The position numbers and the translations under genes were made by a program. A stretch of DNA of 64,000 nt, taken from positions 17,533 through 81,532 of the forward strand of contig CAWGJO010000037.1 in assembly GCA_963822945.1 (NCBI GenBank). Reading direction: 5' to 3'. Below are positions 35,913 through 63,794 of this stretch, piece after piece. This DNA comes from an uncultured Gemmatimonadaceae bacterium (GTDB taxonomy: Bacteria > Gemmatimonadota > Gemmatimonadetes > Gemmatimonadales > Gemmatimonadaceae). Numbering within the stretch: the first letter of the stretch is position 1; each line of letters opens with the position of its first letter. The notes under the pieces were generated by a model, which was given only the letters and a program-made list of their open reading frames with translations, made no database searches and was not told where the DNA came from.

Positions 35913-35956
35913 GACGTGTGTCGACAGACCTGCATTGCGATCGCGTTGGAGACGGG
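35898..35956 (+). repeat. Palindromic att-like site A + conserved tail
   Basis: CGGCACACCTCC-TG-GGACGTGTGTCG ACAGACCTGCATTGCGATCGCGTTGGAGACGGG. Confidence 0.85.
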
Positions 35957-36168
35957 TGGGCGAACCATCGCCAGGAGAGGGAGCTAGTGCGGCATCGCTG
36001 CAGAAGCCTTGCGTCCGCAGGGCGGCAGTGTGTGAGATTGCTGATGCGACGTGGGTATTGCCTCGCGCCGCCAGACAACTTGACGTCGGGAGCCAGCCGC
36101 TGATAGACTCGCTCCGTGGCTTCACGCAGCCGCATGAATCCGGCGACGACACCCATTCGCGATCACCG

Positions 36169-38434
36169 ATGACCCTCTTTGGAGAGGCGGTCTGGACGCT
36201 TCGGTCGCTCCGGCGCAATCTGACCTTCGCCGTAACGTTCGTCGCGGTGTTCGCCATCGGGCTCGGCGCCGGTACCGCCGTGGTCGCTGCCACCCGGGCG
36301 ATCTATGGCGAGCGGCTGCCGGCACCGGCGCGTTGACGCTGGTCCGGATCTACACCGGGAATGCCGGCGCACCTGCCGCCAGCCCGGAGCGATTCGGCCG
36401 TAGCTCGATGCCGGAGATTCGCGCGTACGCCGAGGACAGCGCCGTGTTCCGTGCGGTCATCGCCACGAACAACTTCTCGGCGACGGTGGGCGTCGGCGAA
36501 CGGCGGCTGGCCGCTACGGGCTCCCTGGTGAGCGGCAACCACTTCTCCGTGCTCGGCCAGCGCGCGCAGCTCGGCCGCCTGATCGACCCCGACGACGATG
36601 CGGCGCGCGGGCGCGCCACCGTCGTGGTGCTGAGCGATGCGTTCTGGCACGCCTATTTCGGAGGACGCCGCAGCGCGGTCGGCGCCGTACTGCGGGTGAA
36701 CGGATACCCGTTCACCGTGGTCGGCGTGGCGGCGCCGGACTTCCGCGGGACGGCGTTCGACTACACGCCCGGGTTCTGGGTCCCCATTGCCGCGCAGTCG
36801 GAGGCGTACGGCTCGCCCTGGGTGGTCGATTATCCCGATGCCTGGATGTTCGATACCTTCGCGCTGCTCCAACCGGGGGTCACACCCGTGCGCGCGGACG
36901 GGCACTGCAATCGCTGAAGCGGGGGCTCCACGCGCGGGCGACGACTGGTATGACCAGCGCGTCGCCACGGTGCGATCAGGCCTCGACCTCGCTTGGCGCC
37001 TTCGACCGGCTGCGCCCACTCGTCGACCGGGTCAGCTGGCTTGTCGGCGCCGTCGCCATGCTTCTCATTCTCATCGTGACAGCGAACCTGGCCATGCTTC
37101 TCGCCCGGCGCTTCGCACAGCACCAGCAGATCGCATCCAACTCGGCACTTGCGGCGACACACGAGCAACTAGTGCGACAGCGGCGATCGAGACACTAGTC
37201 CTCACGTTCCCCGCCGTGGGCGCCGGGATCGTCGTCGCCCTGAGGCTCTCCGCGGTGTGGCCGCGCTCTTCCTCATGGCTTCCCCGGCCAGTCGGTTGTC
37301 GGCACCGCTGGCCGCCGGGCGGCCGCGACCGGGCTGGTGAGCGCGGCGTAGATGGCATCGCCTTAGCGTGGCGTGCGCCGCCCCGCTCACGGCCTGGCGC
37401 GCGGCCGGATGGGAGCACGGGTCGCGCGGCCGGCAGGTGCGTCACAGCTTCATGATCGCGCAGGTGGCCCTGGCGTTCGTGGTCGTACTCGTCGCGGCGT
37501 TCCTGCAACGGAGCGCCCACGCGCTCGCATCGGTGATCCGGGATCGACGTCGCAGACGTCCTACGGGCCGCGTCTACCTCTGGAACCGGGCGGGGTTCGA
37601 CGCGGGCTCGATCGCTCGGTACGACGGAGTAGTGCGGCGACTGCGTCTGGATTCCCAGGTGGTGGACGCCTCCTCGGCTGCGCGCAAGTCCTTCGGGCTA
37701 TGAAAACCGAACGGCGATGAGCGTACCGGGGCGTGCGCGGATTCGGGACAGGACAGCGTCGTCGCCTCGGCCACTGTCGGCATCCCAATACTCGCCACGC
37801 TGGGCGTTCCGATTCTCGAGGGGCGGGATTCGACCTGCGGGACACGGTCGGAGCGCCAGGGCAATCGTCGTCGATCGGGCGGCCGCACGGAACTCTGGTC
37901 AGGCGCAAGCGCGCTCGGTCAGGTGGTCCTCCATGCCGGCCAGCGCTTTGCAGTCGTCGGTGTCGTCGGCGACGCCGCCGCGCAAGACTGGACGCGCCTC
38001 ACGTGCCGCGAGTCTACTTCGCGACTCCAGGCCCAGGGCTTCGCACCGCCGCACCAGAAGCTGTTCATTCGGGTTCGCGGTCGGCGGACGCGGCCGGATC
38101 GCGCGCACGATCCAGCGCATCGCCCCGGGCCCCGCACGCGTCGAGCTGCGGACGTGGGGTCGATCCGCGACGATCAGTTCGGCGCGCTCGATGCGCTCGC
38201 GATCTCGTGGCGTCGATCGCGATCGTGGAGACGCTGTTGGCAGCGCTTGGCCTGGCCGGGCTCATGGCCTGTCTCGTCGGCCAGCGACTGCGCGAGACTG
38301 CCATCCGCCTGACGCTCGGCACCAAGCGGCGCTCGATTTTCTGGCTGCTGCTGCGCGATGCCGCGCGCTCAGTGCTCGCCGGAGCTGTGCTCGGCGCATT
38401 ACTCTGGGGTCGTACGGCACGACTGGTCGCTTAG
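36169..38434 (+). pseudogene. ADOP/MacB-type ABC permease, heavily frameshifted
   Basis: Fragments in different frames: FAIGLGAGTAV, VSGNHFSVLG, NGYPFTVVGVA, IVTANLAMLL, AQVALAFV, GQRLRETAIRLTLG. Confidence 0.75.
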
Positions 38435-38681
38435 TTCCTCGCCCGAGCAAAGGGGTCGATCGATCCCGTGAGCGTCACCGCGTCGCTGGTGACGGTCATG
38501 ACGGCCACGCTGGGGCTCGCAGCGCTGCCCTGCCTGAGCGGATCGCGACGGGCGCCCGTGTACCGGGGGAGTGAGGAGGGGCGATCAATGCTGGACAGTG
38601 GGTCCACGTGCTTCGCTCCCACGGTTCGAAGGGAGCGAATGAGGCTTGCCATATGGCGAACCCCATGGGTACGCTTGGGGC

Positions 38682-39421
38682 ATGCGCAACTTCGCGTACA
38701 ATCTGGTTCGGCGCGCGGCGGTCGTGGTCGCCGCGGTGCTGTGCCTGGGCGCTCCCAGCGTCGCCGCGCAGCAAGCTCCCGTGCGAGGTCGCGTCGTCGA
38801 CTCCGCGGGCACTGCGGTGTCGCAGGCCGATGTCATTCTGCTGCCCGACAGCCTCCACACCACAACCGATGGCACCGGCCGTTTCTCGTTCGGGCCGCTG
38901 GCCGCCGGCAAGCACATTCTGCGCGTGCGGCGTTTGGGGTTCGCCCCGGCATTCGTCCCGTTCATTGCGCCGCTGAACAGTGCCCTGGTCGTCGAACTGC
39001 CGCCGCTCCCGTAACGCTGCAGACGATCGTGACCAACGCGCTTTCAGGACGCCTGCCTCGCGTGATACAGCGCGAAGAGGAACACCTGGGTGTGCAGCTC
39101 TATGGGCCGCGCCTGGACAGCCTGTTGCACCGCCACGAGGGCATGACCGTCGGGGAACTGCTGCCCTGGGATCGCGCTGTGGCGCTCAAGCTGATGTCAT
39201 CCAGAGGGTGCCAAAAGGCGATCTATGTGGACGGCGACTCGGCCCGAGCGCCGATCCAATTCTACATCAGCAAGGATGAGATCGGGGCCATCGAGGTGTT
39301 CAATTCGCCCGACTTCATCCACGAGCCGTTCCTACCCCCGGATACCAAGGCCGGAAAGTGCGTGCAACTCATCCTGATCTGGTCCAAGTACTACCAACAG
39401 CAGCCGTGGGGCGGTAAATGA
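38682..39421 (+). CDS. Secreted carboxypeptidase-regulatory-like (transthyretin-fold) domain protein; frameshift near 39005
   Basis: Signal peptide, VRGRVVDSAG...TTDGTGRF...LRVRRLGF; C-terminal IYVDG...IGAIEVF...C...LIWSK. Confidence 0.7.
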
Positions 39422-39461
39422 ACAGCGCCGGACGGCCGTCGCGGTTCCGCTGAAGTCGTGC

Positions 39462-39520
39462 CGGCACACCTCCCGGGAGGTGTGCCGACACACTGTATTG
39501 AGATCTCGTTGGCGAGCGGG
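39462..39520 (+). repeat. Palindromic att-like site B (perfect 26-bp palindrome) + tail
   Basis: CGGCACACCTCC-CG-GGAGGTGTGCCG ACACACTGTATTGAGATCTCGTTGGCGAGCGGG. Confidence 0.9.
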
Positions 39521-39713
39521 CGGGAACTCCTGCGAGGACAAGCTGTTGGCGCGGAATCAAGGCGATGCCGACCCGAAGGAACGGCTTGACGGTCCCCGAT
39601 GGCTTTAGCAAAATGGAATCCGGTGCCGCGGAGCAGGGCACGATGAACTCCGCCGGAGTTCGTGCGCCGTCGGATCGCGATTGGCGCGAAGGCCGCAGCC
39701 TGGGGGAATCGCC

Positions 39714-42103
39714 GTGAAGGCCCTGGTGGACCGTTCCACGTTGCGCGCGCTCGCCCGCACACCGGGCTTCACGATCATGGTCATCGTGTCGCTGGCGCTG
39801 GCCGTGGGCCTCACGACCACCACCTACGGAATCGTTGACGCCGTGATGCATCCGTACGTGCCGTACCGTGCTCCCGAGCAGTTGTATGCGGTGCAGACCG
39901 ATGCCTTCGACGTTTCGGATGACCTCCTGGCCGACATGGCGCGGTCACTGCGTGCCCAGCGTCAGCTCTACTCGGACTTCGCGATGGCCCTGGCGGCGCG
40001 GGCGCATCCGACGATCGGCGTTGCCGGACAGACGCTCGACGTCTTTCCCCAGGAAGCCAGCGTCAACTTCTTCGACGTGTTGGGTGTTCGCATGTTCGCT
40101 GGCCGCGGGTTCCGGCCGGAAGATCGCGACGCGCCCGACCGCGCGGGGGTGGTGGTGAGCTACCGGTTCTGGCGACGGTACCTGCACGGCGCCATGCCGC
40201 TGAGTTCGGTGCCCGTGATGGTGGACGGCCAGGCCTACACCGTGATCGGGGTGCTCGGGCCCGATGTGCGGCGCGGCGACGTGTTCCTCGCCATGCCGCG
40301 CGCCACCGAAGAGGGATGGTTCTTCGGCGCCGGGCCCGTCCTCAGGGTGCGGTCCGGCGTGACCGAAGCGCAGCTGACCGCGGCCCTCCGCCTGGCTGCG
40401 CGCCAACCTGAGCCGGAAGTACGGTCCCCAGCACGTGATTCGCTATGAGGTGCGCTCACTGGCCGGCGCCCCGCGGCAATTGCAACCCTTCCAATTCGCA
40501 CTCTCCGGCGCCGCGCTGATCATTCTCCTGATCGCGTGCGCCAACGTCGCCAACCTGCTCATCGTCCGCGTCGTCACGCGGAGCGTGAAATTGCCGTGCG
40601 AATGGCGCTCGGCGCGTCGCGGCGTGACGTGGGGCGGTTCGTGTTCGGCGAAGCCATCGTGCTCGCCGTCGCGGGTGGTGCACTCGGGCTGCTGCTCGCG
40701 GCGTGGAGCATCCATCTGATCGAGTACCGGTTCACGATGGATGTGAGCCAGATCGGCCTCCTGCAGCCGCATTTCGACTGGCGGGTGGCAGCGGCATCTG
40801 CGCTGGCCAGCGCGCTCGTGGTGGTGCTCATCGCCTGGGGCGCGACGGTCCGCGCACGCGCCACGAACGTGAACGAGGCGATGAAGGACGGCGCCGGCAC
40901 GACGACGCAGCCGGCTCATCGCTCGCACGGATTGCTCGCGGTCACCGAGGTCGCCCTGTCCCTGGTGGTACTGATGGGGGCCGGCCTCTTGTTGCGCGCG
41001 AGTCAGGCCATCCGGCATTTCGACTTCGGCTACGACCCGCGGCACATAGTCTCGACGACGGTGGCGCGGCCGCGACGGGATTCGACCACGAGTCTCGGCG
41101 AGGAATTCTATGCCGACGTGCGCAACGGGATCCGCGCACTCCCCGGCGTGCGGGGCGTGGCCACGACCTACGAGGAAACGGTGCCGGCCAGCGCCGTGAC
41201 CTCGGACGTGGGCGGTGCATCGCCGCGCGTGGCGCGCATCCCCACCTACTCGGTGGTCTCTCCGAGTTTTTCCATCTCGTCGGGATTGCGATCAAACAGG
41301 GGCGTGACTTCGAGCCCGGCGACGTGGACAGCGCCGGCGCGGCGATCGTGGACGAGACACTCGCCCGGATGCTCTGGCCACACGAATCGCCGCTGCAACA
41401 TCTGGTCAAGCTCGGTGGGCCGCGTTCCAACGGGCCCTGGGTCCGCGTGGTCGGCGTCGTCCCGCCCATACGCTTCTCGTTCACGCCCGGCCGCGACCCC
41501 GACCAGGCAATGGCAGTGCATCCGAACGTCTGGGTAGCCAGGGCCGGGAGCGCGCACGGCGAGTACGACGGACGGAAGCTGTTCATCCGTACCCGAGCAG
41601 ACGAGGCCAGCGCCCTCGCCGGCGTGTCGCGGTATCTGCAGACCATCGAGCCGTGGAACCGACCCGTGTACCGGCCCATCCTCGAGCAATTCGACCAGGA
41701 GATGCAGCTCAGCCAATTTCTCGCGTCGCTGTTCGGGGCGCTCGCCGGCTTTGCCCTCCTTCTCTCGACGGTCGGGTTGTACAGTCTGCTGAGCTACATC
41801 GTGGCGCGGCGCGGGCGCGAATTCGCCATGCGAGCCGCGCTCGGCGCCCGCTCGCGCGACCTGGTGCGGGTGGTCGTTCGCGATGCGATGCTGCTGATCC
41901 TGGGGGGTACTGCCGTCGGTGCGTTCGGCGCCATGTGGACCGGCCGAGTGATGGAGCACCTGCTGTTCACGGTGAACCCGCTCGACGCACTCACCCTCGT
42001 GGCGGCCGAAGCCGTGCTCATCGTGATCTCGCTCGCCGCCGTCATCGGGCCGGCGTACCGGGCCACGCGGGCGGATCCCGTGGAACTCCTGCGAGCGACG
42101 TAA
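39714..42103 (+). CDS. ADOP/MacB-type ABC permease (about 3 frameshifts)
   Basis: LRALARTPGF...LALAVG; LIACANVANLL; VTEVALSLV; GLYSLLSYIV...EFAMRAALGA; ADPVELLR. Confidence 0.85.
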
Positions 42104-42134: not shown

Positions 42135-42312
42135 GCTTCGCCCGCTTCATCGCCGAGCCTTTGAACGCGGCGCGAAAGTCGGCTTCTCTCATGGCGAGGG
42201 TCTCCGTCGCCGGTGTCTCACCGCGTCCTTCTCGCCGAGTGCCGCCCGCGCCTCGACCCTCGGCTCCCTCACATCCCTTGCGACTCCAGGATTCTACCGG
42301 CACGCGTCCGGG
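42135..42312 (-). pseudogene. queG: queG 3' fragment C
   Basis: ETLAMREADFRAAFKGSAMKRAKP; DNA similar to fragments A and F. Confidence 0.75.
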
Positions 42313-42330
42313 GAGGTGTGCCGACAAACC
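42298..42330 (+). repeat. Palindromic att-like site C (degenerate)
   Basis: CGGCACGCGTCC-GG-GGAGGTGTGCCG ACAAACC. Confidence 0.8.
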
Positions 42331-42428
42331 ACATCGAAATCGAACCGAGCACCGGACGCCGAGCCACCTCCGCCACATGAACTGAATCGACCAATCGCCC
42401 GTAACACGGCAACATTCCCGGCCGCGCG

Positions 42429-45068
42429 TTACCCCGCGTCGCCCTGAATGCTCCGTACCACGTCCTGGCGCAGCATGCGGCGGATCGGGAGCGCCATTCC
42501 GAACCCCATCACGACCAGCAGAGTGACCGCGACCACTCCCACCGGCACGAGCTGCATGGCGAACATCGGCTTTCCCGCGAACGGGTTCCGCAGGTAAGTG
42601 TCAGCGATGTAAACGGCGCGCGAGCCGAGGAGCAGCCCTCCAAGCGTCGCCAACAAGGCGACAGTGCCAAGGTCGGCGACGAGCGCACGGACCAGGCGGC
42701 GCGGAGTGGCGCCGAGAGCAACGCGGATGCCGAACTCCCGCGCCCGGAGCGCCACCGAGTAGGACGTAAGCCCATACACGCCTGCCACGGCGAGCACGAA
42801 CGAGAGCGCCGCCATGAACGCGAAGAAGTAGGTCCGAGACCGTGCCTGCGCGCTCCAGCGGTCGACGACGGCGGCGACGGGCTCCAGATCGCTCACGACG
42901 ATGCGCGGGTCGATGCGCCCTACGGCTTCTTTCACGGCGCGGAGCCCGGTTGCCGGGTCTCCGACCGTTCGAATGCGGACTTCAGTCGTCGTGTGGCCGA
43001 GCGGTAGACTCTGTACGGTGTAGATCGGCGGCGTCAGGGGGTCGAAGTTCGGCATGTCGCGCACATCGGGTACGACACCGACCACGGTGAACCAGGTGAC
43101 GCGGGCGGAGCCGTCGAGCGCGAGTCCGACTCGCCGGCCGATGGGAGCCCGATCGCCAAAGGTCCAGTGGGCCGTCGTCTTGGAGAGCACGATCACAGGG
43201 GCGTGCGCTTCGGCCTCCGCCGCCGTTGGAAGCCGGCCCAGGATCGGTTTGAGGCCCAGCGTCTTGAAGTAGCTCAGCGAAACGTCCTTCCAGGCCTCGG
43301 CGGCGTACAGGTGTGGCCGCCAATCCGGGTAGAAGCGAGCAGCGCCCGGTATGGGCGTCCGCACCACAGCCGCGGACTGAATGCCGGGGATGCCTTCAAC
43401 CGCCTGGACGAGCGACATGGCGGTCTCCTGCGATGCGACGGTGTCGGGGACGCTCAGCCGGGCCGTGAGGACTTGTGAATAGTCGAATCCCGGTCCGGCG
43501 CCCTGTGCATCCCGATTGGCGACCACCAGGGCCGCCAGCATGGCCATACACGCCAGCGACAGTCCGAGCTGAAGCGCGACGAGACCGCGTCGGTTGCGGA
43601 TCTCTCGCGAACCGCCCGTTGATGAAGATGCGCCGGACAGCACGGCTCGAAGGTCGGCGCGCGCGAGATCGATGGCGGGCGCAAGGCCAAACAGCAGGCC
43701 GACGAGGACGGTTCCGGCAACGCCGAACGCCACCGTTGGCCAGTTCATCCGCGGCACCACCAGCATGAAATCCCGTCCGAACCAGAGACGGCGCGCGTCG
43801 AGGAGCCACTTTGCGATGACGATGGCAGCGGCGCCGCCGGCGGCCGCCATGAGCGCCGCCTCGATGGTGAGCATGCCTACGATGCGTCGCCGGGACGCGC
43901 CCAGGGCTACGCGTACCGCGATCTCCTCTCGGCGCCGCATGCCACGCGCGAGCAGCATCGTCGTGAAGTTCACGGCACCGAGCAGGATGATTACGATTGC
44001 CGCCGCAATCCAGAGGCGAATCAGGTTGCGGTAAGGGGACGTGACATCCCGGGCCAGCGGCAAGAGATCCGCCACCGGGGTTTTGGCCAACCCGGCGACG
44101 ATGCCCGCCTGATGGAATGCGACCGACACGTCGGCCTGGGCGCGGGCCATCGGGACGCCCGGCCGGAGCCGGGCGATCACAACGTTATTCTGCCATTTCC
44201 TGTCGGCGGGTGGCGTGGCCAGCCGCCGAAGGCTGTCGTGACCCAACGGGAGCCAAATGTCGGTGCCGAGTGGCAGGCTGAACCCCTGCGGCATTACCCC
44301 AACGATCGTCGCGTGCTGTCCATCGACAGGCACCGTGGTGCCAATCACGTCCGATCGTCCACCGAACTCGGAATGCCAGATGTCGTAGGAAAGAATGACG
44401 GGCGGCACGGTTTCATGCGCATCGTCTTCCGTAAACGCGCGCCCGAGAAGCGGGCGCACACCGAGAACGTCGAAATAGTTCGACGTCACCGGAACGGACG
44501 ATACGCGGATCGCGTAGCCGCTGGGGCCGAGGTCCGAGCCGGGTCCGTACTCCTGCGCGACCGCGACGCCGGAGAAGGAGCGCACTCGCTGCGCGGCCAG
44601 CGCATCACGCGCGGGAAGCACGGAGAAGAGCGAATTCATCTGCGGGTCGCGCTCGCGGACGATGACCAGCTCTGCCTGGCTGGGAAAGGGTAGCGGACGC
44701 AGAAACAGCGCGACCACCATGCTGAACACGGCGGTGGCGAGCGCCATGCCAAGCGCGAGCGAAAGCGATGCGCCACCCACCGCTCCCGGGTGCCGCCGCA
44801 AGCGCCGCGCCGCGCTCGCCGCCTCGGTGAGTGACCGCTCGATCCACGGGAGTCCGCGCTGGTCGCGGTAGGCGTCGCGTGCTGCCTCGAGGCCGCCCGC
44901 GTGTACCATCGCGAGACGGCGGGCTTCGGATGGCGCCATTCCGCGGCGCACAAGCTCGTCGGTCTCCAGGGCGAGGTGCGCGGCGAACTCTTCGTTCATG
45001 TCGCCGTCGCGATGCGCCCGGCGGAAGAATCCGCCGACCCGGACAATGATTTCCCGAACTTTGCTCAC
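42429..45068 (-). CDS. ADOP/MacB-FtsX duplicated ABC permease
   Basis: EEF.AHL.LET..L..RGM...EARRLA...GG; RREEIAVRVALGA; GVYGLTSYSV..RAREFGIRVALGA. Confidence 0.9.
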   Translation of the reverse strand: MSKVREIIVRVGGFFRRAHRDGDMNEEFAAHLALETDELVRRGMAPSEARRLAMVHAGGLEAARDAYRDQRGLPWIERSLTEAASAARRLRRHPGAVGGASLSLALGMALATAVFSMVVALFLRPLPFPSQAELVIVRERDPQMNSLFSVLPARDALAAQRVRSFSGVAVAQEYGPGSDLGPSGYAIRVSSVPVTSNYFDVLGVRPLLGRAFTEDDAHETVPPVILSYDIWHSEFGGRSDVIGTTVPVDGQHATIVGVMPQGFSLPLGTDIWLPLGHDSLRRLATPPADRKWQNNVVIARLRPGVPMARAQADVSVAFHQAGIVAGLAKTPVADLLPLARDVTSPYRNLIRLWIAAAIVIILLGAVNFTTMLLARGMRRREEIAVRVALGASRRRIVGMLTIEAALMAAAGGAAAIVIAKWLLDARRLWFGRDFMLVVPRMNWPTVAFGVAGTVLVGLLFGLAPAIDLARADLRAVLSGASSSTGGSREIRNRRGLVALQLGLSLACMAMLAALVVANRDAQGAGPGFDYSQVLTARLSVPDTVASQETAMSLVQAVEGIPGIQSAAVVRTPIPGAARFYPDWRPHLYAAEAWKDVSLSYFKTLGLKPILGRLPTAAEAEAHAPVIVLSKTTAHWTFGDRAPIGRRVGLALDGSARVTWFTVVGVVPDVRDMPNFDPLTPPIYTVQSLPLGHTTTEVRIRTVGDPATGLRAVKEAVGRIDPRIVVSDLEPVAAVVDRWSAQARSRTYFFAFMAALSFVLAVAGVYGLTSYSVALRAREFGIRVALGATPRRLVRALVADLGTVALLATLGGLLLGSRAVYIADTYLRNPFAGKPMFAMQLVPVGVVAVTLLVVMGFGMALPIRRMLRQDVVRSIQGDAG

Positions 45069-45409
45069 GGGGCGGCGGTCCGGGGGCCGAGGAACCAGGC
45101 CAGAATCTCCGTCGTGGCGTGCCACTGGCGGGCCTCGTGTGCGAGGTGTCGCCGCCCGGCGGCGGTGAGCGTGTAGAATTTGGCGCGCCGGTTGTTTTCC
45201 GACTGTCCCCAGGAGGACGTGACGAATCCCTGCTGTTCCAGCTTGAGCAGGGCGGGATAGAGCGTGCCGTAGTTGAGCGAGAGCCGGTCGCGGCTCGTCT
45301 CCTCGATGCGGCGCGCGATGCCGTAGCCGTGAAGCGGTCCGAGTACGTCGAGCGTGCGCAGCACCATGAGGGCGAGCGTACCCTGCCAGACGTCGAGTTG
45401 GGCGGGCAT
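45065..45409 (-). CDS. PadR-family transcriptional regulator
   Basis: QGTLALMVL...LHGYGIARRIE...GTLYPAL..LEQ...SENNRRAKFY. Confidence 0.93.
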   Translation of the reverse strand: MPAQLDVWQGTLALMVLRTLDVLGPLHGYGIARRIEETSRDRLSLNYGTLYPALLKLEQQGFVTSSWGQSENNRRAKFYTLTAAGRRHLAHEARQWHATTEILAWFLGPRTAAP

Positions 45410-45505: not shown

Positions 45506-45581
45506 CACAAGGGCACCGTTGCGCCGGAGGCCCTTTACCTTCGCCCGCTTCATCGCCGAGCCTTTGAACGCGGACCGGAAT
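45506..45581 (-). pseudogene. queG: queG 3' fragment D
   Basis: FRSAFKGSAMKRAKVKGLRRNGALV. Confidence 0.75.
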
Positions 45582-45714
45582 CGGCGGCGCCGCCGACCTC
45601 CGGCACGTGGTGTGGACCTTTCCGGCGAAGCATGCTAGCGTGAGGACACCACGCGCGCCGGCCGCCGGGCGCGCGTCGGGTGGTGCCGAACAACTCCCAC
45701 CGAATCGTTCGGGC

Positions 45715-48529: not shown

Positions 48530-48609
48530 GCTCGGCCGCCAAGGTCCGCGCCTCGCGGTGCAAGAGCGCCGCCCGGGAGAACTTACGGTTGAACGGGCAC
48601 ACTTCCTGG
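48530..48609 (-). pseudogene. queG: queG 3' fragment E
   Basis: QEVCPFNRKFSR...EARTLAAE. Confidence 0.7.
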
Positions 48610-48653
48610 GAGGTGCGCCGACAAAACTGTATTGCGATGCGATTGGAGAACGG
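48595..48653 (+). repeat. Palindromic att-like site E + tail
   Basis: GGGCACACTTCC-TG-GGAGGTGCGCCG ACAAAACTGTATTGCGATGCGATTGGAGAACGG. Confidence 0.88.
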
Positions 48654-49000
48654 ATAGGAACTTGAATCCCGGTCTGGCCTGACGAAAGCAGGCTGTCGGC
48701 GGCGGGTCGGGCCTCACCGGGCCGGGCCGCGGGCTGGTGGTCCGGCGGGGGCCCCCGCCGCCGCGCGGAACGGCGCAGGTGCGCCAGGATCCGATCGATC
48801 TCCGCAGCCTCGGTGATGAAGGCGAGGATGCGCATCGCGCCGCCGCACGCCGGGCAGGGAGCGGGTCCACTTCTATAGATGTGGCGCAAGAGCTCGGCCC
48901 AGCGCCGCCGCGCCTCGCGGAGCGGGGGCGGCTCCGAGGCGGCCACCGGGACCGGCACGATGGGCGCAGATGCGCGGTCGACCCGTCCCGCCTTCCCCCC
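48652..49000 (-). mobile_element. IS91/ISCR-like remnant: transposase C-terminus + oriIS-like end
   Basis: EARRRWAELLRHIY/EVDPL.CPACGGAMRILAFITE...IDRILAHL...RGPP; end sequence GGGATTCAAGTTCCTATCC on the minus strand. Confidence 0.7.
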
Positions 49001-49099
49001 CGTTCCCCGCAGAAATCCGCCCGGCGGAATCTTCCCGGCGCCAACCGCCGTAAGGGTCCCGACCCCACCGCGACGCCACCCAAGCACAAGGAGGATACC

Positions 49100-52901: not shown

Positions 52902-52903
52902 CG

Positions 52904-53617: not shown

Positions 53618-53902
53618 GGGGCGGGGACCGGAGCTTCGGGGGCCGCATTGCGCCCGGCCCTCGCGCGGCGCATATCGAATTGCAGATGGATTGGTTGAAC
53701 GCCGTACGTGCGGGCCCCACCCCCGACCGAGGCAGTCACAATGCATGCGTCCGTCCGAACGGTGCTCGTCGCGCTCGCCCTCGTCGCCACTGCATGCTTC
53801 GCGTACCGGCCCGCCGCCGGGGGTTGGGCAGGATGAGACGCGGGGGGCGCGCCAAGCGGCCGGCCGCCGCGGCCTGGCGCCGCATGCCCCGCGCGCGGTT
53901 GG

Positions 53903-54140
53903 CATAGTTGCGAGCTTCACCATTTCGCTTGACGGATACGGAGCCGGCCCGAATCAGGACCTCGACCATCCCATGGGCGTTGGCGGACAGGATCTGCACC
54001 CGTGGCTCCTCTCGACACGCACCTTCCAGGTTCCGGTCTTCGTCCTGACCCATCACGCGCGGCCACCGCTCCCGATGGAAGGCGACACGGCGTTCCACTT
54101 CTTCACGGGCGGCATGCGCGAGGCGCTCGACCGGCAGACG
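53903..54140 (+). pseudogene. Dihydrofolate reductase/RibD-C family fragment with internal deletion
   Basis: SFTISLDGYGAGPNQ...GG..LH.W joined directly to PVFVLTHHAR...FHF. Confidence 0.7.
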
Positions 54141-54192
54141 GGAACACGGCTCAAACGCCGCGCGGCTGTGCCGCGCGAGGAGAGGAACCGGT

Positions 54193-54723
54193 ATGGCGAA
54201 GCTCGTGTTCGGCATGAACCAGTCCCTGGACGGCTACGTTGACCATACGGCGTTCGGGCCGGGCCCCACACTCTTTCGCCACTTCATCGAGCAGGTGGAA
54301 GGGCAGACGGGCGCTGTCTACGGCCGCCAGATGTATGAGGTCATGCGGTACTGGGACGACGAGCATCCTGAATGGGATGCCGAGGAACGCGCCTTCGCGG
54401 CGGCCTGGCGGAACGTTCCGAAATGGGTGGTCTCGCGCTCGCTCAACTCGGCGGGTCCCAACGCCAGACTCATCGAACATGATCTCGAGGACGCGATCCG
54501 AAAGGTGAAGGCCGAGCACGACGGCGAGGTCGAAGTCGCCGGCCCGAACCTGGCTCGGAGTCTCACCGAACTCGGCCTGATCGATGAGTACCGCATCTAC
54601 CTGCACCCCGTGGTGCTCGGCAGCGGCAAACCGTATTTCGCCGGTCCTCGGCCGCCACTCCGCTTGCTGACCAGCGACCGGATTGGCGAGGATGTGATCA
54701 GGCTGACCTACGGGCCCGCGTGA
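54193..54723 (+). CDS. Dihydrofolate reductase/RibD C-terminal domain protein
   Basis: MNQSLDGY, YGRQMYE, GLIDEYRIYLHPVVLGSG. Confidence 0.9.
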   Translation: MAKLVFGMNQSLDGYVDHTAFGPGPTLFRHFIEQVEGQTGAVYGRQMYEVMRYWDDEHPEWDAEERAFAAAWRNVPKWVVSRSLNSAGPNARLIEHDLEDAIRKVKAEHDGEVEVAGPNLARSLTELGLIDEYRIYLHPVVLGSGKPYFAGPRPPLRLLTSDRIGEDVIRLTYGPA

Positions 54724-55088
54724 TCGCGCGACGATTCGCACCATTGATCGTGTTCGCGCTGGTTGCGGCGTGCACGCATGAGCTGAGTCCGACGGCGCGC
54801 GGCCGCTACGTGTTCGGTGGGGAAGTGCGGTCGTTCCAGCCGTGTGGCGACGCGAACGAGTACTGGGTCGTCACGTCAGACTCGAATCGGATTCGTCTGC
54901 GCACGCTGCATGGGCAACTCACCTCACGCCCGTATCAGGCCATCTACATCGAGGTGCGCGGCGCCCGGACGGATGGCGTTGCAGGCGAGTTCTCCCGGGC
55001 GTATGATGGGCTGTTTCGCATCGATACCATACTGAAGGTGTCCGCCGAGATTCCAAGCAGTTGTTCGGCGCCGGCGAAGCCAGAGTAG
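54720..55088 (+). CDS. Lipoprotein, NlpE C-terminal OB-fold-like
   Basis: Lipobox VAAC; G.YV.G.EV.SF.PC....YWV...IYIEVRG. Confidence 0.6.
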   Translation: MIARRFAPLIVFALVAACTHELSPTARGRYVFGGEVRSFQPCGDANEYWVVTSDSNRIRLRTLHGQLTSRPYQAIYIEVRGARTDGVAGEFSRAYDGLFRIDTILKVSAEIPSSCSAPAKPE

Positions 55089-55160
55089 GGATGCGCGCTG
55101 AGCGAACAACACCACCCATCGTGAGACGGCGCCGGATTGCCTCGGGAGGTCGGATCAGTC

Positions 55161-55646
55161 GTGAATCGTGATAATGAGCTGCTCCTGCACTTCCTGGCGG
55201 CCATCGCCTACCGGACGCAGAAGGCACTGCGCGGCGCCCCAGCGCGCTATCCGGACCTCGCGGTCGGTCACGGCTCGCGAACGCCCGTCGAGATTCTCCG
55301 GCACATGACCAGTCTCATGGGCTACACTCAGACGCTGTTCCTGGGTGGTGAATACCCGATGGTCCCCGACGCACTGCCCACGTTTGACGACGAGGTGGCG
55401 CGGTTCCACGACGAGTTGAACGGTGTGGGAGCGCTGCTGAGGTCGGGGGCGTCGTTGCGAGACATCTCCACGGAGCAGTTGCTGCAGGGCCCGTTGGCCG
55501 ACACGATGACCCACGTGGGACAGCTGGCCCTGATGCGGCGCCTCGCCGACAGCGCCGTTCGCGGGGAGAATTTCATTTTTGCCGAGGTGCGCGCAGACCG
55601 GTTGGGGGTCGATCAGGCCGCGCCGGCTCGCCCGGACCCGGAATGA
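55161..55646 (+). CDS. DinB-like hypothetical protein
   Basis: RTP.EIL.H...QGPLAD.MTHVGQLALMRRL. Confidence 0.7.
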   Translation: MNRDNELLLHFLAAIAYRTQKALRGAPARYPDLAVGHGSRTPVEILRHMTSLMGYTQTLFLGGEYPMVPDALPTFDDEVARFHDELNGVGALLRSGASLRDISTEQLLQGPLADTMTHVGQLALMRRLADSAVRGENFIFAEVRADRLGVDQAAPARPDPE

Positions 55647-55786
55647 TCTGACGCGGGCTCGCTACGGGGCGCTGCCGGCGCCAACGTCGCGCCTGGCGCC
55701 CTGCGGCGCCGGCCGCGACTATTAGAAAACGTCGCAGGAGAGCGCCGCGGCGCTATGCGACCGACTCGAGGACCGCCTGGCTTCTC

Positions 55787-57028
55787 ATGCACACGAACGC
55801 CCCGTACTCAGGCAACGCACTGCTCCAGCCGCTGATCGCGTTCCTACGCCTTGAAGCGGCCGGCGGCCTGGTGCTGATGGCGTCCGCCGCGTTGGCGCTG
55901 ATCGTCGCCAACTCGCCGCTCGCGGTTCACTATGCGGCGCTGCTGGATACACCGCTTGCGGTCAGCGTCGGGGCGTTCGGCCTCGCCAAGCCCTTGCTGT
56001 TGTGGATCAATGACGGCCTCATGGCGGTGTTCTTCTTCCTCGTCGGCATGGAGCTGAAGCGCGAGGTGCTGGAAGGGCACCTGTCGAGCCTGCGCCAGGC
56101 GGCGCTGCCGGCGTTTGCCGCGGCCGGGGGCATGCTCGTTCCCGCCGCCGTGTACGTGTCATTGAATCGGGCTGACGCCGTCGCGATGCAGGGGTGGGCG
56201 ATCCCGACCGCGACCGACATCGCCTTTGCGTTGGGCGTGCTCGCCCTGCTCGGCAAGCGGGTGCCGGTCGCGTTGAAGGTTCTGCTGCTGAGCATCGCCA
56301 TCTTCGACGACTTTGGCGCGATCGTCGTGATCGCCCTGTTCTACACGGCCAAGCTTTCCTTGCTGGCACTGGCGATCGCGGCAGGTCTGACGGTGGCGCT
56401 TGCGGTCCTCAATCGCATGCGCGTGATGCGGCCGGTCGCCTACATCCTGATCGGCATCGCCCTGTGGGTGGCGGTCTTGAAATCGGGGGTGCACGCCACG
56501 CTCGCGGGCGTCGTGGTGGCGATGTTCATTCCGCTGCGCGGGCCGGAGGGCGACGCGTCGTCGGTACCCGCGTCACCGCTGCGACAACTCGAGCACACGC
56601 TGCATCCGTGGGTGGCGTTCGGGATTCTGCCCGTGTTTGCGTTTGCCAACGCCGGCATCGCGATCGGTGGGTTCTCGATCGGCGACATCTTTCATCCCGT
56701 GCCATTGGGCATCGCGGCCGGCCTGTTCTTCGGGAAGCAGATCGGGGTACTGGCGCTGTGCTGGATTGCCATACGCGTGCGACTCGCGGCGCTACCAGAA
56801 GGCGTCAGCTGGTGGCAACTCTACGGGACTGCCCTGCTGTGCGGCATCGGGTTCACCATGAGCCTGTTCATCGCATCCCTGGCCTTCGAGTCCGGCAACT
56901 CGGCCTATCTGGGACTGGAGCGACTCGGAATCCTGATCGGGTCGTTGGCGGCCGGGCTGTTGGGGTACCTCGTGCTGCGGTTCACGCCCGGCGCGCGGCG
57001 CCTCGTTGGCTCCCCATCGCCCTCGTGA
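55787..57028 (+). CDS. nhaA: Na+/H+ antiporter NhaA
   Basis: WINDGLMAVFF, GWAIPTATDIAFA, AIFDD, KSGVHATLAG, GIGFTMSLFI. Confidence 0.95.
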   Translation: MHTNAPYSGNALLQPLIAFLRLEAAGGLVLMASAALALIVANSPLAVHYAALLDTPLAVSVGAFGLAKPLLLWINDGLMAVFFFLVGMELKREVLEGHLSSLRQAALPAFAAAGGMLVPAAVYVSLNRADAVAMQGWAIPTATDIAFALGVLALLGKRVPVALKVLLLSIAIFDDFGAIVVIALFYTAKLSLLALAIAAGLTVALAVLNRMRVMRPVAYILIGIALWVAVLKSGVHATLAGVVVAMFIPLRGPEGDASSVPASPLRQLEHTLHPWVAFGILPVFAFANAGIAIGGFSIGDIFHPVPLGIAAGLFFGKQIGVLALCWIAIRVRLAALPEGVSWWQLYGTALLCGIGFTMSLFIASLAFESGNSAYLGLERLGILIGSLAAGLLGYLVLRFTPGARRLVGSPSPS

Positions 57029-57468: not shown

Positions 57469-57561
57469 ACGGCCTGGGTCCCTGAAAAGTGGTCCAGCCG
57501 GGGTCCCGTTTTGACAGGGAGCTGAAGCGAGGCCAGACTCTCGGGAGAGAGGAGGCCAGGG

Positions 57562-57828
57562 ATGCGGAAGAGCAAGTTCACGCCGGAGCAGATCCTCCAG
57601 GCGCTGCGGCAAGCCGAGGGCGGGACGGCGGTGGTTGACATCTGCCGGAAGCTCGGGGTCACGGAGACGACGTTCTATCGCTGGAAGAAGCAGTACACGG
57701 GGCTCGACGTGAGCGAGTTGCGGGAGCTGAAGCAGCTGCGGGATGAGAATCGGCGGCTGAAACAGGTCGTCGCCGATCTGACGCTCGACAAGACGATGCT
57801 GCGCGAGGCGCTCGGAAAAAAATGGTGA
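57562..57828 (+). CDS. IS3 transposase OrfA
   Basis: MRKSKFT.EQI...CRKLGV...TFYRWKK; A7 slippery site at 57816-57822. Confidence 0.92.
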   Translation: MRKSKFTPEQILQALRQAEGGTAVVDICRKLGVTETTFYRWKKQYTGLDVSELRELKQLRDENRRLKQVVADLTLDKTMLREALGKKW

Positions 57829-58676
57829 GCCCAAGCCAGCGACGCCGGATGTTGGCTTGGGCGCGGGGCGCCTATGGCGTGAGCGAGCGGCGCGCGTGCC
57901 GCGGCTTGGTGATCCAGCGCTCGTCGATGCGCTACCGGGCCCGGCGGCCGGACGATGCGCCGGTGCGCCGCCGCCTCCACGAGCTGGCCCGGGATCGCCC
58001 CAGCTTCGGCGCGAAGCGCCTGCACGTGCTGCTGCGCCGGGACGGGCTCCGGATCAATCACAAGAAGGTGCATCGGCTGTACATCGAGGAAGGGCTGCAA
58101 CTCAAGCCACGTCGCCGGCGTCGCCGCTCCGCGACCGTTCGACAGCCGCGGGCCGTGGTGAGCCACGCGAATGAGCGGTGGGCGATGGACTTCATGCACG
58201 ACGTGTTGGCCACCGGGCAGACAGTGCGCGTGTTCACGCTCGTGGACGTCTACACGCGCGAGTGCGTGGCGCTCGAGGTCGCGCGCTCGTTCCGGGGGAG
58301 CGACGTGGCGCGGCTCCTCAGCGATGCCGGCGAGCGCCGCGGCGGCTTACCCGCCATCATCCAGTGCGACAATGGGACGGAGTTCACCTCCACTGCGCTG
58401 GATCACTGGGCGTACTGGAATCGCGTCAAGCTCGACTTCAGCCGCCCGGGGAAGCCCGTCGACAACAGCGTGTGCGAGGCCTTCAACGGCAGCGTACGAC
58501 GTGAGTGTCTCACGTGTCATTGGTTTGCCTCTCTCGCGGAGGCGCGCGTCACGCTAGCTTCGTGGCGCGAGGACTACAACAACCACCGGCCCCATACGAG
58601 CTTGGGGCTGCAACCACCGGCGGCGTACGCGGGCGCCGGCCACTACCTACCTCGCATCAGAACTCTCAGAAACTGA
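57822..58676 (+). CDS. IS3 transposase OrfB (DDE)
   Basis: WAMDF, DVYTREC, CDNGTEF, EAFNG..R.ECL, YN..RPH.SLG. Confidence 0.93.
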   Translation: MVSPSQRRRMLAWARGAYGVSERRACRGLVIQRSSMRYRARRPDDAPVRRRLHELARDRPSFGAKRLHVLLRRDGLRINHKKVHRLYIEEGLQLKPRRRRRRSATVRQPRAVVSHANERWAMDFMHDVLATGQTVRVFTLVDVYTRECVALEVARSFRGSDVARLLSDAGERRGGLPAIIQCDNGTEFTSTALDHWAYWNRVKLDFSRPGKPVDNSVCEAFNGSVRRECLTCHWFASLAEARVTLASWREDYNNHRPHTSLGLQPPAAYAGAGHYLPRIRTLRN

Positions 58677-58763
58677 CGCTCTGGCGCGGATCAGTTTTGG
58701 GGACCCAGGCCCACACTCAGAAACTGACGCTCTGGAGCGGATCAGTTTTGGGGACCCAGGCCC
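58665..58763 (+). repeat. 51-bp tandem duplication of the IS3 right end
   Basis: CTCAGAAACTGACGCTCTGG.GCGGATCAGTTTTGGGGACCCAGGCCC at 58665 and 58716. Confidence 0.9.
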
Positions 58764-59745: not shown

Positions 59746-60172
59746 GGATAGGAATTTCAATCCCCGTATGGTCAGACGGGGGCGCGCTGGGAACCGGTGT
59801 GCAACTGGGAGCCGGCGGGGGCGCGGCCCGCAGCGGGGCGTTGGGCCGCGCGCTTGGGGAGGGCGGCTGCTGTACCGGGGCGTGGCGGGTCCCCGGCGGG
59901 CGTTGCGCGCCCCGACGGGCACGCCGAAGGTCCCCCGGGGCGAGCCCAGGGGCCGATCGGCGGGCGATCAGGATGAGACGCGGGAGGCGGCGCGCCGCGG
60001 GGGCGGGGCCGCGAGTCGGCGCTCGGGTGGGGGCCCCCGCCCCCGCGTGGCCCGGCGGAGGTGGGCGAGGATCCGATCGATCACCGCTCCCTCGGTGATG
60101 ATGGCGAGGATGCGCATCGCGCCGCCGCACGCCGGGCAGGCGAGCGGGTCCACTTCATAGATGTGGCGCACG
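59746..60172 (-). mobile_element. Second IS91/ISCR-like remnant: transposase C-terminus + oriIS-like end
   Basis: RHIYEVDPLACPACGGAMRILAIITEGAVIDRILAHL...RGPP; end sequence GGGGATTGAAATTCCTATCCC on the minus strand. Confidence 0.75.
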
Positions 60173-60296
60173 ATGGCTACTCTTTCTTGTGACACTTGTT
60201 GGGGCGTCCGTACCGTTTGTAGTTAGCTGGCGGTGGTTTAGCGCACGAGAAGCGACCTGACACCGCCTAGAATCACGACCATAATTGTTTGCTGCC

Positions 60297-61016: not shown

Positions 61017-61307
61017 ATGACTGGATCGATCGCGTTCAACGGCGGCGCCACGAAGGTCGCCAAGATCAACTACCAGCTACCCATGCCGGGCAGCCATCAC
61101 GGCCGACGCCTTGTGCGGCTCGACCTGGGAATCAAGGGCTCCGAGTGGAGCGACGACGCCAAGGCCTTCGGCGAACAGCCGGGCGAGGCGGCTGGCATCG
61201 GGCCGTCCGGCCAAGGCTATACGATCGACGTGGCGCGCGCCCGTGAATACCTGCGGGGCAAGCTCACCGCCGTGGGCTTCCGCGCGACGACGTCGATCTC
61301 GCGCTGA
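61017..61307 (+). CDS. Hypothetical protein, 96 aa
   Basis: GAGGAGG RBS; first gene of a co-oriented cluster. Confidence 0.55.
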   Translation: MTGSIAFNGGATKVAKINYQLPMPGSHHGRRLVRLDLGIKGSEWSDDAKAFGEQPGEAAGIGPSGQGYTIDVARAREYLRGKLTAVGFRATTSISR

Positions 61308-61331
61308 CGCGACTGCCAGGAGTGATCACCG

Positions 61332-62770
61332 GTGACGCCGAGACGCCACGCCGACGCCAGCGTCGGGACTGCACTGCGAGCCGCGGCCGTGTCTCGCGCC
61401 ACGCTCATGGCCACCACGGCCGCGGTCGGCGCGGTGGACTCGATCTCCACCGCCGAGCCAGCCCCGGCGCCGGCACCCGCGCCTGCCCCGCCACCCACGG
61501 CGTCGGATCGCCTCGACGAGATCGTCGACGTGTTCGTCGCGAACGCGAACCGGGGGCTCGTCACGTCGATCCTTCTCGACTCCACGGGCGAGACGGTGCT
61601 GCAGACCTCGCCGGTGACTGTGGTGGAGGAGCCGACACTGTTCCTGGTGGAGAAGGTGGCGATCTCGTCGTTCCTTGGCGATTACGGCATGGGCCGCACC
61701 GTGCGGACATTCACGCTACTGCCAGGGGAAACGACGTCCATCCGGATCAAGACGTGGCAGTCCACCGAGGAGTCGCGCAAGCAGGCGTCATCGATCATCG
61801 ACTCCCACGAGCAAGAGGCGCAGACGCGGTTCCAGAGCGAGGTGCAGTCCGAGACCACCGACAAGCAGACGCGCAGCTCGGAGGAGAAGTGGTCGGTGGA
61901 AGCCGAGGCATCGGCCAGTGGGGGTGGGGTAGCGCCAAGGTAAGCGGATCGGCGTCGGGCGACTACCAGTCGGGCCGCGAGCAGTTCGCGAAGCAGGCGT
62001 CGTCGGCCGTGGGCGAGCATGCGGCCAAGGCGTCTTCCAAGCGCCAGCTGTCCGTCACGAGCGAGTCCGAGTCAAAGTCCACCACCGGCGAGGAGTCTGT
62101 GATCGAGCGGACGATCGAGAACGTCAACGTGAGGCGCGTGCTCAACTTCGTGTTCCGCGGGCTCAACCAGGAGTACTCGACCGTTCTGCACCTCACGGAC
62201 ATCCAGGTGGCGTTTACGAACCGGCGCACCAACTCCTGGCGCATCGTCCCGATCTCGGGACTGCGCGGCCTGCTCGAGACACTGCTCAAGGCCGCGCCCA
62301 AGCGCCGCGGCGAGATCGCGTCGCTAATCCTCAAACTCGCCGGAACCGTGATCGACGACCAGAGCGCGTCGGTCCGCACGCTCGACGCGCTCCACTACGA
62401 CGTGGTCAACGACGTCATGACCGTGGGTCCGGTGACGATGGACGTGCAGGGCATGCCCGCCCCGCCCACCGAATCCGACTACTACCGATTCAAGCCGGGC
62501 CCGCTCGGGTCGCAGACGGAGGTGGACGGCGTGCGCATGAGCCAGCAGACCATCGTCATGCGGACGGATTCCGTGCTCGTCGAGGCGCTGCTGGGCGAGT
62601 CCGACGCGCTCGACGAGTTCGCAATGGAGGTGCAGCAGGCAGCCGCGACCGCGCAGACACTCGCCAACCAGCGCGAGACGCTGCTGCAGTCCACGCTGAA
62701 CGCCATCGCGGATCCGGCCGAGCGCGCCAAAGCCGCCGCGGCGTTATACGGGCCGGTGAAGGAGACGGCC
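61332..62770 (+). CDS. Ser/Thr-rich hypothetical protein, candidate beta-pore-forming toxin (frameshift near 61920; end approximate)
   Basis: SSFLGDYGMGRTV.TFTLLPGE...WSVEAEASAS/WGWGSAKVSGSASG...ERTIENVN..RVLNFVFR.LNQEY. Confidence 0.55.
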
Positions 62771-62771
62771 T

Positions 62772-63576
62772 ATGGGCGACACGATCACCGACACCTCCAA
62801 GGTGGCCGGGACATCGAAGGTCACCGGCACGGGCGTCGCGAACACAGCGCCGGTGCTCGGCAAGGCGGGCGCGCCGGCGGCGGGGAAGCAGCCGCCTCCG
62901 CCGCCGGCGATCCCGGCCTTCAAGGACAAGGCGGCCGCGCTCGCATGGGCCAACGAGGTGGTACACAAGGATCTCGGCCTCAACTCGACATCCGTGTACT
63001 GGTTCTCGGTGTCGGCCTCCAAGCGCCCTCATCCGCGGACCGGCCTGCCGCCGGACCCCGGCCTCGTGGACTGCGGCTTCGCCGCCTGGACCAACACGGC
63101 CACCGACATCTACCTTTTCGATGCGCTATGGGATAACAACCTGTCGGTCGGTGTCGGCTCGGCGCAGCAGGCCGAGCTGGGCAACGGTGGCGCACGAGTC
63201 GCTGCACGCCGTGCACTTCAAGTCCGCGTGGGGCGGTGGGCACCCACCGTCGCTCGCGACCGGCTTCCACCACGAGTGGAGGACGTATGCGGCGAGCGCC
63301 AAGGCGCTGGGAGCGCCCACGCACAGCAGGGTGAAGCGCTTCATCGCCGAGGCGGCAGGCAAGGATGAGCTGGCGCCAGAAGGCCGCGCAGGAGGGAGTC
63401 GCCAGGAGTTCGCGGGCTGGTACAACGGCCACAAGGCCGGGATTGGGAAGCTCAACGCCGACCAGGCGGAACTTGAATACCTGAAGTTCTTCGAGAAAAT
63501 CAATGGACTGCCGCCGAAGATCCTCGCTTCGGGCAAGACACCAAAGGAGATGCTACAGTTGACGTATGGATACTAA
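62772..63576 (+). CDS. Putative zinc metallopeptidase (HExxH); frameshift near 63175
   Basis: GGAG RBS; Pro-rich linker; VAHESLHAVH followed by HHEWRTY. Confidence 0.55.
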
Positions 63577-63599
63577 GCCCAGTGCTCCTGCGTGAAGCC

Positions 63600-63665
63600 G
63601 CGCGGTACCGGTTGACGTGCCCGCGCGCGGTGGCATACCACCCGTAGTAGCGCGTCACCACCGCA
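63600..63665 (-). mobile_element. IS91-like transposase internal fragment
   Basis: VVTRYYGWYA(T/A)RG resembles the catalytic RYYG.Y motif of Y2 rolling-circle transposases. Confidence 0.55.
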
Positions 63666-63684
63666 TTCTTCCGTGCGACCGTCT

Positions 63685-63794
63685 CCCGCGCTCGAACCTC
63701 GGCTCCCTCACCTCCCGCGCGACGCCAGATTCTACCGGCACACCTCCTGGGAGGTGTGCCGACAAAACTGTATTGAAATTGTATTGGCAACGGG
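63685..63794 (+). repeat. Decayed queG-derived flank + palindromic att-like site F + tail
   Basis: CGGCACACCTCC-TG-GGAGGTGTGCCG (63736-63761) ACAAAACTGTATTGAAATTGTATTGGCAACGGG; the left flank aligns with site C. Confidence 0.9.

Follow-up and report, generated by a model that had tools for sequence, protein, structure and literature searches.

The region discussed here lies in a 64,000-nucleotide stretch of contig CAWGJO010000037.1 from an uncultured Gemmatimonadaceae bacterium of soil and sediment (assembly GCA_963822945.1). This stretch is referred to below as the window, and all coordinates are positions within it unless a contig or locus is named. Between 35.9 and 63.8 kb the window carries a series of repeats, confirmed as co-oriented sites on the minus strand, that combine a non-coding arm with displaced 3' sequence of the tRNA-modification gene queG and that separate modules lacking any recombinase. 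An earlier note, made from the letters alone, had described att-like sites derived from a housekeeping gene and bounding integron-like cargo at 35956..63735. The sites are real and the displaced target is queG, the proposed bounds falling ~45 and ~13 nt off the outer cores. As argued below, the modules form a tandem stack behind queG that has probably been built and re-ordered by a large serine recombinase. Throughout, G000 denotes this genome and other G codes the genomes of relatives, L codes are fetched loci and C codes contigs. The assembly of G000 is 88% complete and its queG array is split over several contigs.

Anatomy of the sites

Read in the direction of queG, which is the minus strand of the window, a site consists of a non-coding arm of ~80 bp, termed P, followed by a CA dinucleotide and then by displaced queG 3' sequence, the tail, which begins at the Gln codon of the second iron-sulphur motif. 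The intact gene has the layout arm B, CA, tail. Site F (63542..63830, minus strand) has a P arm at 63750-63830, a CA core at 63748-63749 and a queG tail that extends to 63686, where it is joined to a fragment of a transposase resembling those of the insertion sequence (IS) IS91. At site A (35696..35996, minus) the P arm covers ~35912-35996, the CA core lies at 35910-35911 and a degenerate queG 3' tail, in which TAG replaces a Trp codon, runs to ~35696. Site E (48566..48651, minus) retains a CA core at 48607-48608 and has a short tail of the type found at recombinase islands, reading ENLRLNGHTSW in antisense, and its P arm is interrupted at approximately -45 by an IS91-like end. The remaining sites are more eroded. 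Site B (39454..39560, minus) has a P arm with a perfect palindrome, a core at 39474-75 that reads CG and a queG tail of at most ~13 bp; 357 bp here are identical in public run X1, which confirms the mutated core. Site C (42135..42371, minus) has a P arm, a core at 42310-11 mutated to CC and a 175-bp tail with 71.6% identity to the intact queG 3' end, while site D (~45517..45600, minus) is a queG tail alone, devoid of both arm and core.

The sites share 150-300 bp at 70-85% identity. When scored with a 67-bp matrix, trained partly on the window sites and seeded on CA, sites A, E and F reach 81.7, 77 and 92.3 bits, respectively, whereas nothing in the 3.79 Mb outside the five array contigs scores above -12, which argues that they are not chance matches. 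Since the cores of B and C are mutated, D is armless and the arm of E is cut by an IS end, sites B, C and D appear dead and only A and F look intact. The two mutated cores and the armless site, together with a 15-kb composite built by IS elements (see below), suggest that this copy of the array is partly frozen.

Measured from core to core, the intervals are 3563 bp (A-B), 2837 bp (B-C), 6297 bp (C-E, or ~3243 plus 3054 bp if D is counted) and 15141 bp (E-F), in agreement with the sizes estimated previously. It had also been proposed that genes fit between the sites uncut and that no interval encodes a site-specific recombinase. Indeed, no called gene crosses a core in the window, and among the 68 scored sites of the genus only one is crossed, by a call on the queG tail itself (B and C were checked separately). 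None of the intervals contains a tyrosine, serine or queG-type recombinase, nor any recombinase remnant beyond the queG tail.

An array of modules behind queG

The intact queG gene (TIGR00276) of this genome is on contig C31, and further sites follow it on C31 and then on C7 and C19. C19 overlaps the window contig by 6.5 kb, and C31 and C19 are unjoined by sequence. In the relative G016, which has no site other than queG itself, the genes that follow queG map to ~23 kb of the window and leftward; synteny with this empty allele is present on either side of the insert and resumes at ~23.8 kb. On this synteny the window is evidently the distal end of a single insert of ~110 kb and ~20 modules, which starts at the intact queG on another contig. 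A displaced queG 3' end stands at the far boundary, as expected of a single-copy target that is restored on insertion. The end of C31 (G000:C31:49873-55999) repeats the sequence before it in inverted orientation, two inverted sites included, which may be an assembly artefact or a real inversion, and G000:C8 is an 89%-identical, many-gapped copy of C31:24145-33306 and is likely a redundant or strain contig.

Modules are small, with a median of 3.3 kb and 68 of 91 no longer than 5 kb, and their cargo lies on both strands (98 opposite to queG, 64 in the same direction). Among 147 distinct tails, 14 carry the N-R/H-K motif typical of the recombinase islands and 81 are of host type. The core of queG itself is GA or GG in G000, G001, G006, G008 and G012. 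This change alters the Gln of the iron-sulphur motif in these five genomes and would block insertion there. The first module after queG is common to G000, G001, G006 and G012 and is closed by a B-like arm with a differing downstream neighbour.

The exchange point within the sites

The position at which sequences switch was examined in 31 pairs of sites that share one flank. Seven pairs share the left flank at 0.96 or more, and in five of these the first difference is at +2, +2, +4, +4 and +5; in the three pairs that share the right flank at 0.98 or more the last difference falls at -3, -4 and -4. The bases immediately before the core are TGT or TGC in 23 of 23 intact queG genes and TCC in 127 of 150 distinct internal sites, in 141 of which CA is kept, as counted with a matrix itself seeded on CA. 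Between the B and P arms there is a difference at -2 and in most cases also at -1, and the breakpoints lie between -3 and +2. The position of the breakpoints, coupled with the contrast between TGT or TGC and TCC, maps the exchange to the CA dinucleotide, so that the shared core would be two bases within inverted arms. A 2-bp core within inverted arms is a signature of serine recombinases.

A candidate serine recombinase

A profile built from unrelated serine recombinases matches an open reading frame that adjoins queG in two relatives, G078 and G262. The product has domain PF07508 in both and PF00239 also in G078, and belongs to a family of ~710 amino acids with an invariant Y-x-R-K-S motif and a cluster of Cys residues. 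Its predicted structure (mean pLDDT 73.5) best matches serine integrases (E 6e-16). The last ~140 residues run antisense to queG. As this part is modelled at low confidence (pLDDT <50 for residues 573-703), a functional dual-coding overlap is not claimed.

Matches to the recombinase are present in 13 of 401 genomes of the family, 11 of them close, and a protein collection contains 53 homologues. Nine of the 11 close members overlap the 3' end of queG on the opposite strand, the other two running off their contigs, and in all nine close homologues with DNA at this point the reading frame stops at the core or within a few codons past it. Two more distant members, from another order-level family, likewise overlap the queG 3' end and terminate at the core or just beyond it, and four distant matches do not lie at queG. 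Apart from a duplicated N-terminal fragment in G262, there is a single recombinase gene. The islands that carry it are 18-35 kb long, with restriction-modification and other defence genes, and the same P arm closes six of the 11 examined (G078, G137, G706, G367, G262 and G560), the last being a 3.7-kb mini-island with a broken recombinase and a P-arm end. Collectively, these comparisons indicate that the enzyme acting on queG sites is likely a large serine recombinase.

Other recombinases were considered. A 480-residue tyrosine integrase beside the tail in G012 and G002 was the first candidate. It was rejected, the G012 island ending at tRNA-Leu and the homologue in G070 abutting tRNA-Phe. The 480-residue proteins (L058:16270-17712, L137:15002-16444 and L213:9323-10777, all on the minus strand) are divergent tyrosine integrases of tRNA islands in which the position of the first catalytic Arg appears as Asp (G-P-D-V-G-E-L, G-A-D-L-G-E-V), and the copies in G012 and G002 stop ~55 bp short of a queG-like entry site that is filled with cassettes. 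G108 has another tyrosine recombinase (L232:10826-12304, minus) at a locus other than queG, 1.3 kb ahead of a degenerate queG tail. Separate integron integrases occur at L233-L236 in G180, G229, G006 and G011, those of G229, G006 and G011 being followed by series of small genes. Finally, G000:C24:13819 is a dif-like site with XerC- and XerD-type arms and a 6-bp spacer, and is the only match in the genome to the pattern that we take to describe dif.

Distribution and re-ordering in relatives

The site query matches 15 of the 16 other genomes of the genus, and in G014, G015 and G016 the match is queG itself only. In a wider search with the queG tail, two or more matches were obtained in 28 of 137 family genomes, representing 13 genera, compared with one of 136 and none of 27 genomes in two sister families. 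The extra copies in the 11 fetched multi-copy genomes outside the genus are tails, mostly behind the same P arm. What the modules carry depends on lineage, with ADOP-type permeases and PadR in this genus and, in G025 and G180, kinases among other genes. Viral contigs yielded no match to the site or to the recombinase.

Within contiguous DNA, module order is inverted in two of six module pairs between G000 and G012, and in the one pair available between G000 and G004. The check for shuffled order between strains that the earlier note called for thus came out positive, for order and for neighbours alike, and no relative was found to hold the window cargo in the order of the window. Away from queG, B-like sites followed by cassettes are present in the tRNA-Leu island of G012, next to the same integrase in G002 and, in G070, 50 kb from its homologue; these may serve as cassette vehicles. 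G006 carries, at G006:C8:1-10470 and 29000-71000, an inverted duplicate of the first queG modules and a second site-bearing region that is rich in IS91-like and IS110 copies, ~290 kb from queG.

How the array may be built

The reading that we consider probable from these comparisons is that a tandem stack of recombinase-free modules behind queG is inserted, excised and re-inserted at CA by the large serine recombinase of islands that share the module ends. The circular form of an island would carry P-CA-tail, and its insertion would restore queG and push older modules back. The tail that comes in would itself be a functional queG end, which would make attP similar to attR and attB similar to attL. 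As a result, any downstream P would be a potential partner, such that a visiting recombinase could excise a block reaching from a B-type site to whichever downstream P it paired with. The circle could then re-enter via any one of its own P sites, so that modules would be permuted or lost by B x P reactions only. Modules would remain after the helper departs, their cargo altered by IS elements and deletions, and would decay upon core mutation (B, C) or arm loss (D). Where the queG core is GA or GG, in this genome and four relatives, the B-like site that closes module 1 would likely be the entry point, since the downstream neighbour of this shared module differs among G000, G001, G006 and G012.

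A number of observations weigh against this. No close homologue of the recombinase is present in this genome or in any of 15 genomes of the genus, and in a profile search of this genome PF07508 and PF00239 gave no match, PF00589 finding a Xer-type gene and one weak match. No P arm turned up in the 37 kb read behind the recombinase of G714 or in the 17 kb read behind that of G187, and the contigs of G346, G329 and G546 stop early behind theirs. Approximately five modules, in G180 (at three places), G025:C77 and G176, carry recombinase remnants past the tail. For most pairs of genomes, either the modules in common are too few or no inversion is seen. Two of the left-sharing site pairs, which involve one site present twice in the assembly, also differ at -5; the conservation of CA was counted with a matrix seeded on it, and homologous recombination between similar sites could also shift breakpoints into a conserved core. 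Core-to-core joints or circles were sought in the contigs of four public runs, at low depth, and none was convincing; a joint from 34123 to 39467 near site B was not counted, its short side being only 24 letters.

The remnants bear directly on whether the modules are merely relics of autonomous recombinase islands that have decayed in place and never moved again, with module order set by independent insertions and deletions. Decay of this sort is the published route to cis-mobilisable elements (CIMEs), as described in part of PMC5704250, and it would fit the broken recombinase of G560 and the mutated cores and lost arm of the window. It is less easily squared with the scarcity of recombinase-type tails, which number just 14 of 147 against 81 of host type, or with the modules of this genus, in which no recombinase remnant was found. 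One and the same recombinase-free module is found joined to queG in G004, after a P arm in L184 and armless in the window, and modules that are 98.7% identical stand in inverted order. Decay in place is therefore an unlikely account of the array as a whole, although the ~5 modules with remnants in other genera indicate that island decay contributes. A role for RecA-type homologous recombination between the arm-plus-tail repeats, perhaps after DNA uptake and with the recombinase only seeding the first sites, could draw on the length and identity that the sites share, on the lack of the recombinase in most array-bearing genomes and on the dominance of host-type tails. Yet the switch in near-identical pairs is confined to -3 to +2 rather than being spread along the tail, and the non-coding arm is conserved across genera along with CA in 141 of 150 sites, which suggests selection for recognition by a protein. 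We regard this route as quite improbable.

It is more improbable still that a resident enzyme, be it XerC/D, the integron integrase of the genome, an IS110 protein or the 480-residue tyrosine integrase, acts on the sites. Array-bearing genomes do have XerC/D-like genes and often IntI, and in two relatives the tyrosine integrase ends ~55 bp before a tail. However, the dif-like site of this genome is unlike the core, and the 480-residue integrase belongs to tRNA islands. No attC-type pair of R boxes surrounds any of the five window sites searched with RYYYAAC...GTTRRRY, which we assume to be the attC motif, and no intI adjoins any queG array, the IntI genes being at other loci. IS110 was not found in G078, G070 or G020, and a 2-bp shared core is better suited to serine chemistry.

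Returning to the large serine recombinase, two proposals of the earlier note are upheld in part. Mobilisation of the modules in trans is compatible with the rare recombinase found elsewhere in the family, but excision of blocks in cis would explain the data equally. The view that the modules are non-autonomous cassettes holds for their lack of recombinase and their re-ordering, but not for the ~5 modules of other genera with remnants or for the 15-kb interval, which is an IS composite. A more ambitious picture is that of a serine-recombinase counterpart of integrons across the Gemmatimonadaceae, with queG as entry site, a shared pool of cassettes of one to three genes with interchangeable ends, a rare visiting enzyme that excises, permutes and re-inserts them, and tRNA islands or prophages bearing a queG-like entry site (G012:C18, G002:C205, G070:C2) as ferries between cells. 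This may be so, though we incline somewhat against it.

Insertion and re-ordering at queG would account for a ~100-kb hypervariable locus, ~2.8% of this genome with roughly a quarter of its ADOP-like permeases, in an abundant and poorly cultured soil phylum, and would provide a new family of large serine recombinases with a mapped 2-bp core and >150 natural site variants. An attP that resembles attR is unusual, and makes the control of direction and a reusable serine-integrase cassette array testable.

Cargo of the window

Module A-B (36166..39421, plus strand) contains a fragmented ADOP-type permease at 36166-38434 and a secreted protein with a carboxypeptidase regulatory domain at 38682-39421, and several of its indels differ in contigs of other strains. 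Module B-C (39714..42103, plus) is an ADOP-type permease that is frameshifted in this assembly. Neither module has a close match among the fetched loci of relatives. Module C-D (42429..45409, minus), with an ADOP-type permease and PadR (TIGR03433), has 88% identity over 3.27 kb with the module that G004 carries fused directly to its intact queG, and also occurs behind a P arm in the metagenome loci L184, L188 and L178. The Ser/Thr kinase-TPR gene that follows (45716..48505, plus) is 98.7% identical to an intact gene of 929 codons in G012, where it has other neighbours. Its frameshift is likely an assembly error, since three public runs lack the extra bases. More generally, contig C19 duplicates the last 6.3 kb of the window at 99.2% with open reading frames, which, with the kinase, makes it likely that some of the window's frameshifts are errors of assembly.

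The 15-kb interval between E and F is a composite built by IS elements. Next to site E is the 3' remnant of an IS91-like transposase (48652..49009, minus) with an oriIS-like end and 81% identity to a full-length copy in G006; the family label and the oriIS motif are our presumptive assignments for these remnants. There follow genes for a Sel1 protein, a four-gene ABC transporter, a RibD-C protein and nhaA (49031..57028, plus), an IS3-family element with orfA and orfB and one end duplicated (57470..58763, plus), and a second IS91-like 3' remnant, again with an oriIS-like end (59746..60174, minus). In total the interval contains one IS3 and three IS91-like remnants, one of which cuts the arm of site E; the IS91-like remnants had escaped the first reading. 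Such elements were considered as movers of the modules and rejected as passengers, one sitting inserted in a P arm. The final two genes, of 586 and 269 codons (61017..63576, plus), are intact in the overlapping contig C19 and are found also at L009:3551-6120. Neither has a match in Pfam or NCBIfam. The longer product matches large unnamed Atlas clusters at 0.96, and a lead to aerolysin reaches only 0.76, which is chance level, so that the toxin-like role once suggested for these genes is unsupported. The other cargo had been correctly named (ADOP-type permeases, PadR, kinase-TPR, Sel1, ABC, NhaA and IS3).

Past the last site, older cargo without sites extends over 23800..35695 and includes ADOPs, an amidohydrolase and other genes. 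Within it, 27.9-32.1 kb matches a block that lies directly behind queG in G014 and before a P arm in L196. Elsewhere in the window, at 5139-5450 and 7923-8223, there are two intergenic clusters of 16-bp tandem repeats in inverted pairs, resembling repetitive extragenic palindromes (REP) or bacterial interspersed mosaic elements (BIMEs) and unrelated to the queG sites.

ADOP paralogues in the array

The array holds 13 of the 49 ADOP-like loci of the genome and 10 of its 21 related PadR genes in 2.9% of the assembly, the redundant contig C8 included. In a tree of 33 long ADOPs, the eight from the array fall in scattered positions, and each is only 31-41% identical to its nearest paralogue. Local duplication of ADOPs inside the array was rejected, the array ADOPs forming no clade. 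No queG site was found elsewhere in the genome, and the ADOPs outside the array are without one. The proposal that such modules are a route to ADOP paralogue expansion is therefore only partly borne out: to judge from the tree, the array stockpiles imported paralogues, but most of the expansion is not explained by it.

Relation to known systems

Searches of the openly accessible literature gave no paper that connects queG with the integration of islands, broader searches likewise brought up nothing about such a system, and queG does not appear in the text passages or eight supplementary files available from a survey of large serine recombinases (PMC10083194). The closest published counterpart is the ssrA islands of Dehalococcoides. 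In the sections available of PMC3146451, these are described as standing in tandem within ~100 kb behind one target gene, with a CcrB-like serine recombinase, DsiB, on the opposite strand and overlapping the target with its 3' end; displaced target ends each follow a conserved motif, and the integration module is missing from 15 of 31 islands. The queG array has the same layout, and in both cases the cargo is rich in one expanded family, rdhA there and ADOP/PadR or kinases here. It differs from what those sections describe in that the target is protein-coding and is cut at least ~70 codons before its end, giving a tail of ~200-400 bp rather than 20 bp, in that a single recombinase of ~710 residues is found at queG and no six-gene module was seen, and in that nearly all modules, up to 20 or more per genome, are without the enzyme and are re-ordered between strains.

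Composite islands and pseudo-elements of the staphylococcal cassette chromosome (SCC) at orfX/rlmH likewise consist, in the account given in parts of PMC7029136, of stacked serine-recombinase islands and recombinase-free units with att repeats and small ars modules. The queG array occupies another target in another phylum, no ccrA/ccrB pair was seen in it, and its repeats have a long coding tail. CIMEs, as presented in the excerpts of PMC5704250, also keep att sites while lacking genes for integration and transfer, and move along with an adjacent element. The window conforms to this: A, E and F keep their cores, those of B and C are mutated and D has lost its own, and the modules are without integration or transfer genes. 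However, whereas CIMEs are described there as decayed integrative and conjugative elements or integrative and mobilisable elements, most queG modules have no helper remnant and have host-type tails.

The resemblance to integrons and to clusters of attC sites lacking integrases (CALINs) is, on the passages available from PMC8618304, one of organisation: a single entry site, many units of one to three genes that each end in a site, re-ordering, and arrays without a linked integrase. The queG arrays have no IntI, attI or attC, carry cargo on both strands and likely rely on serine chemistry at double-stranded sites. The pdif modules of Acinetobacter, from the partial descriptions available, are likewise small, recombinase-free and shuffled by an enzyme encoded elsewhere, but there the enzyme is the host XerC/D acting on plasmids, and the queG sites are unlike the dif-like site of this genome. 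The queG array is thus not an integron but a variant, at a new target, of the Dehalococcoides ssrA islands and of the SCC and CIME stacks, with integrons and pdif modules as functional analogues only.

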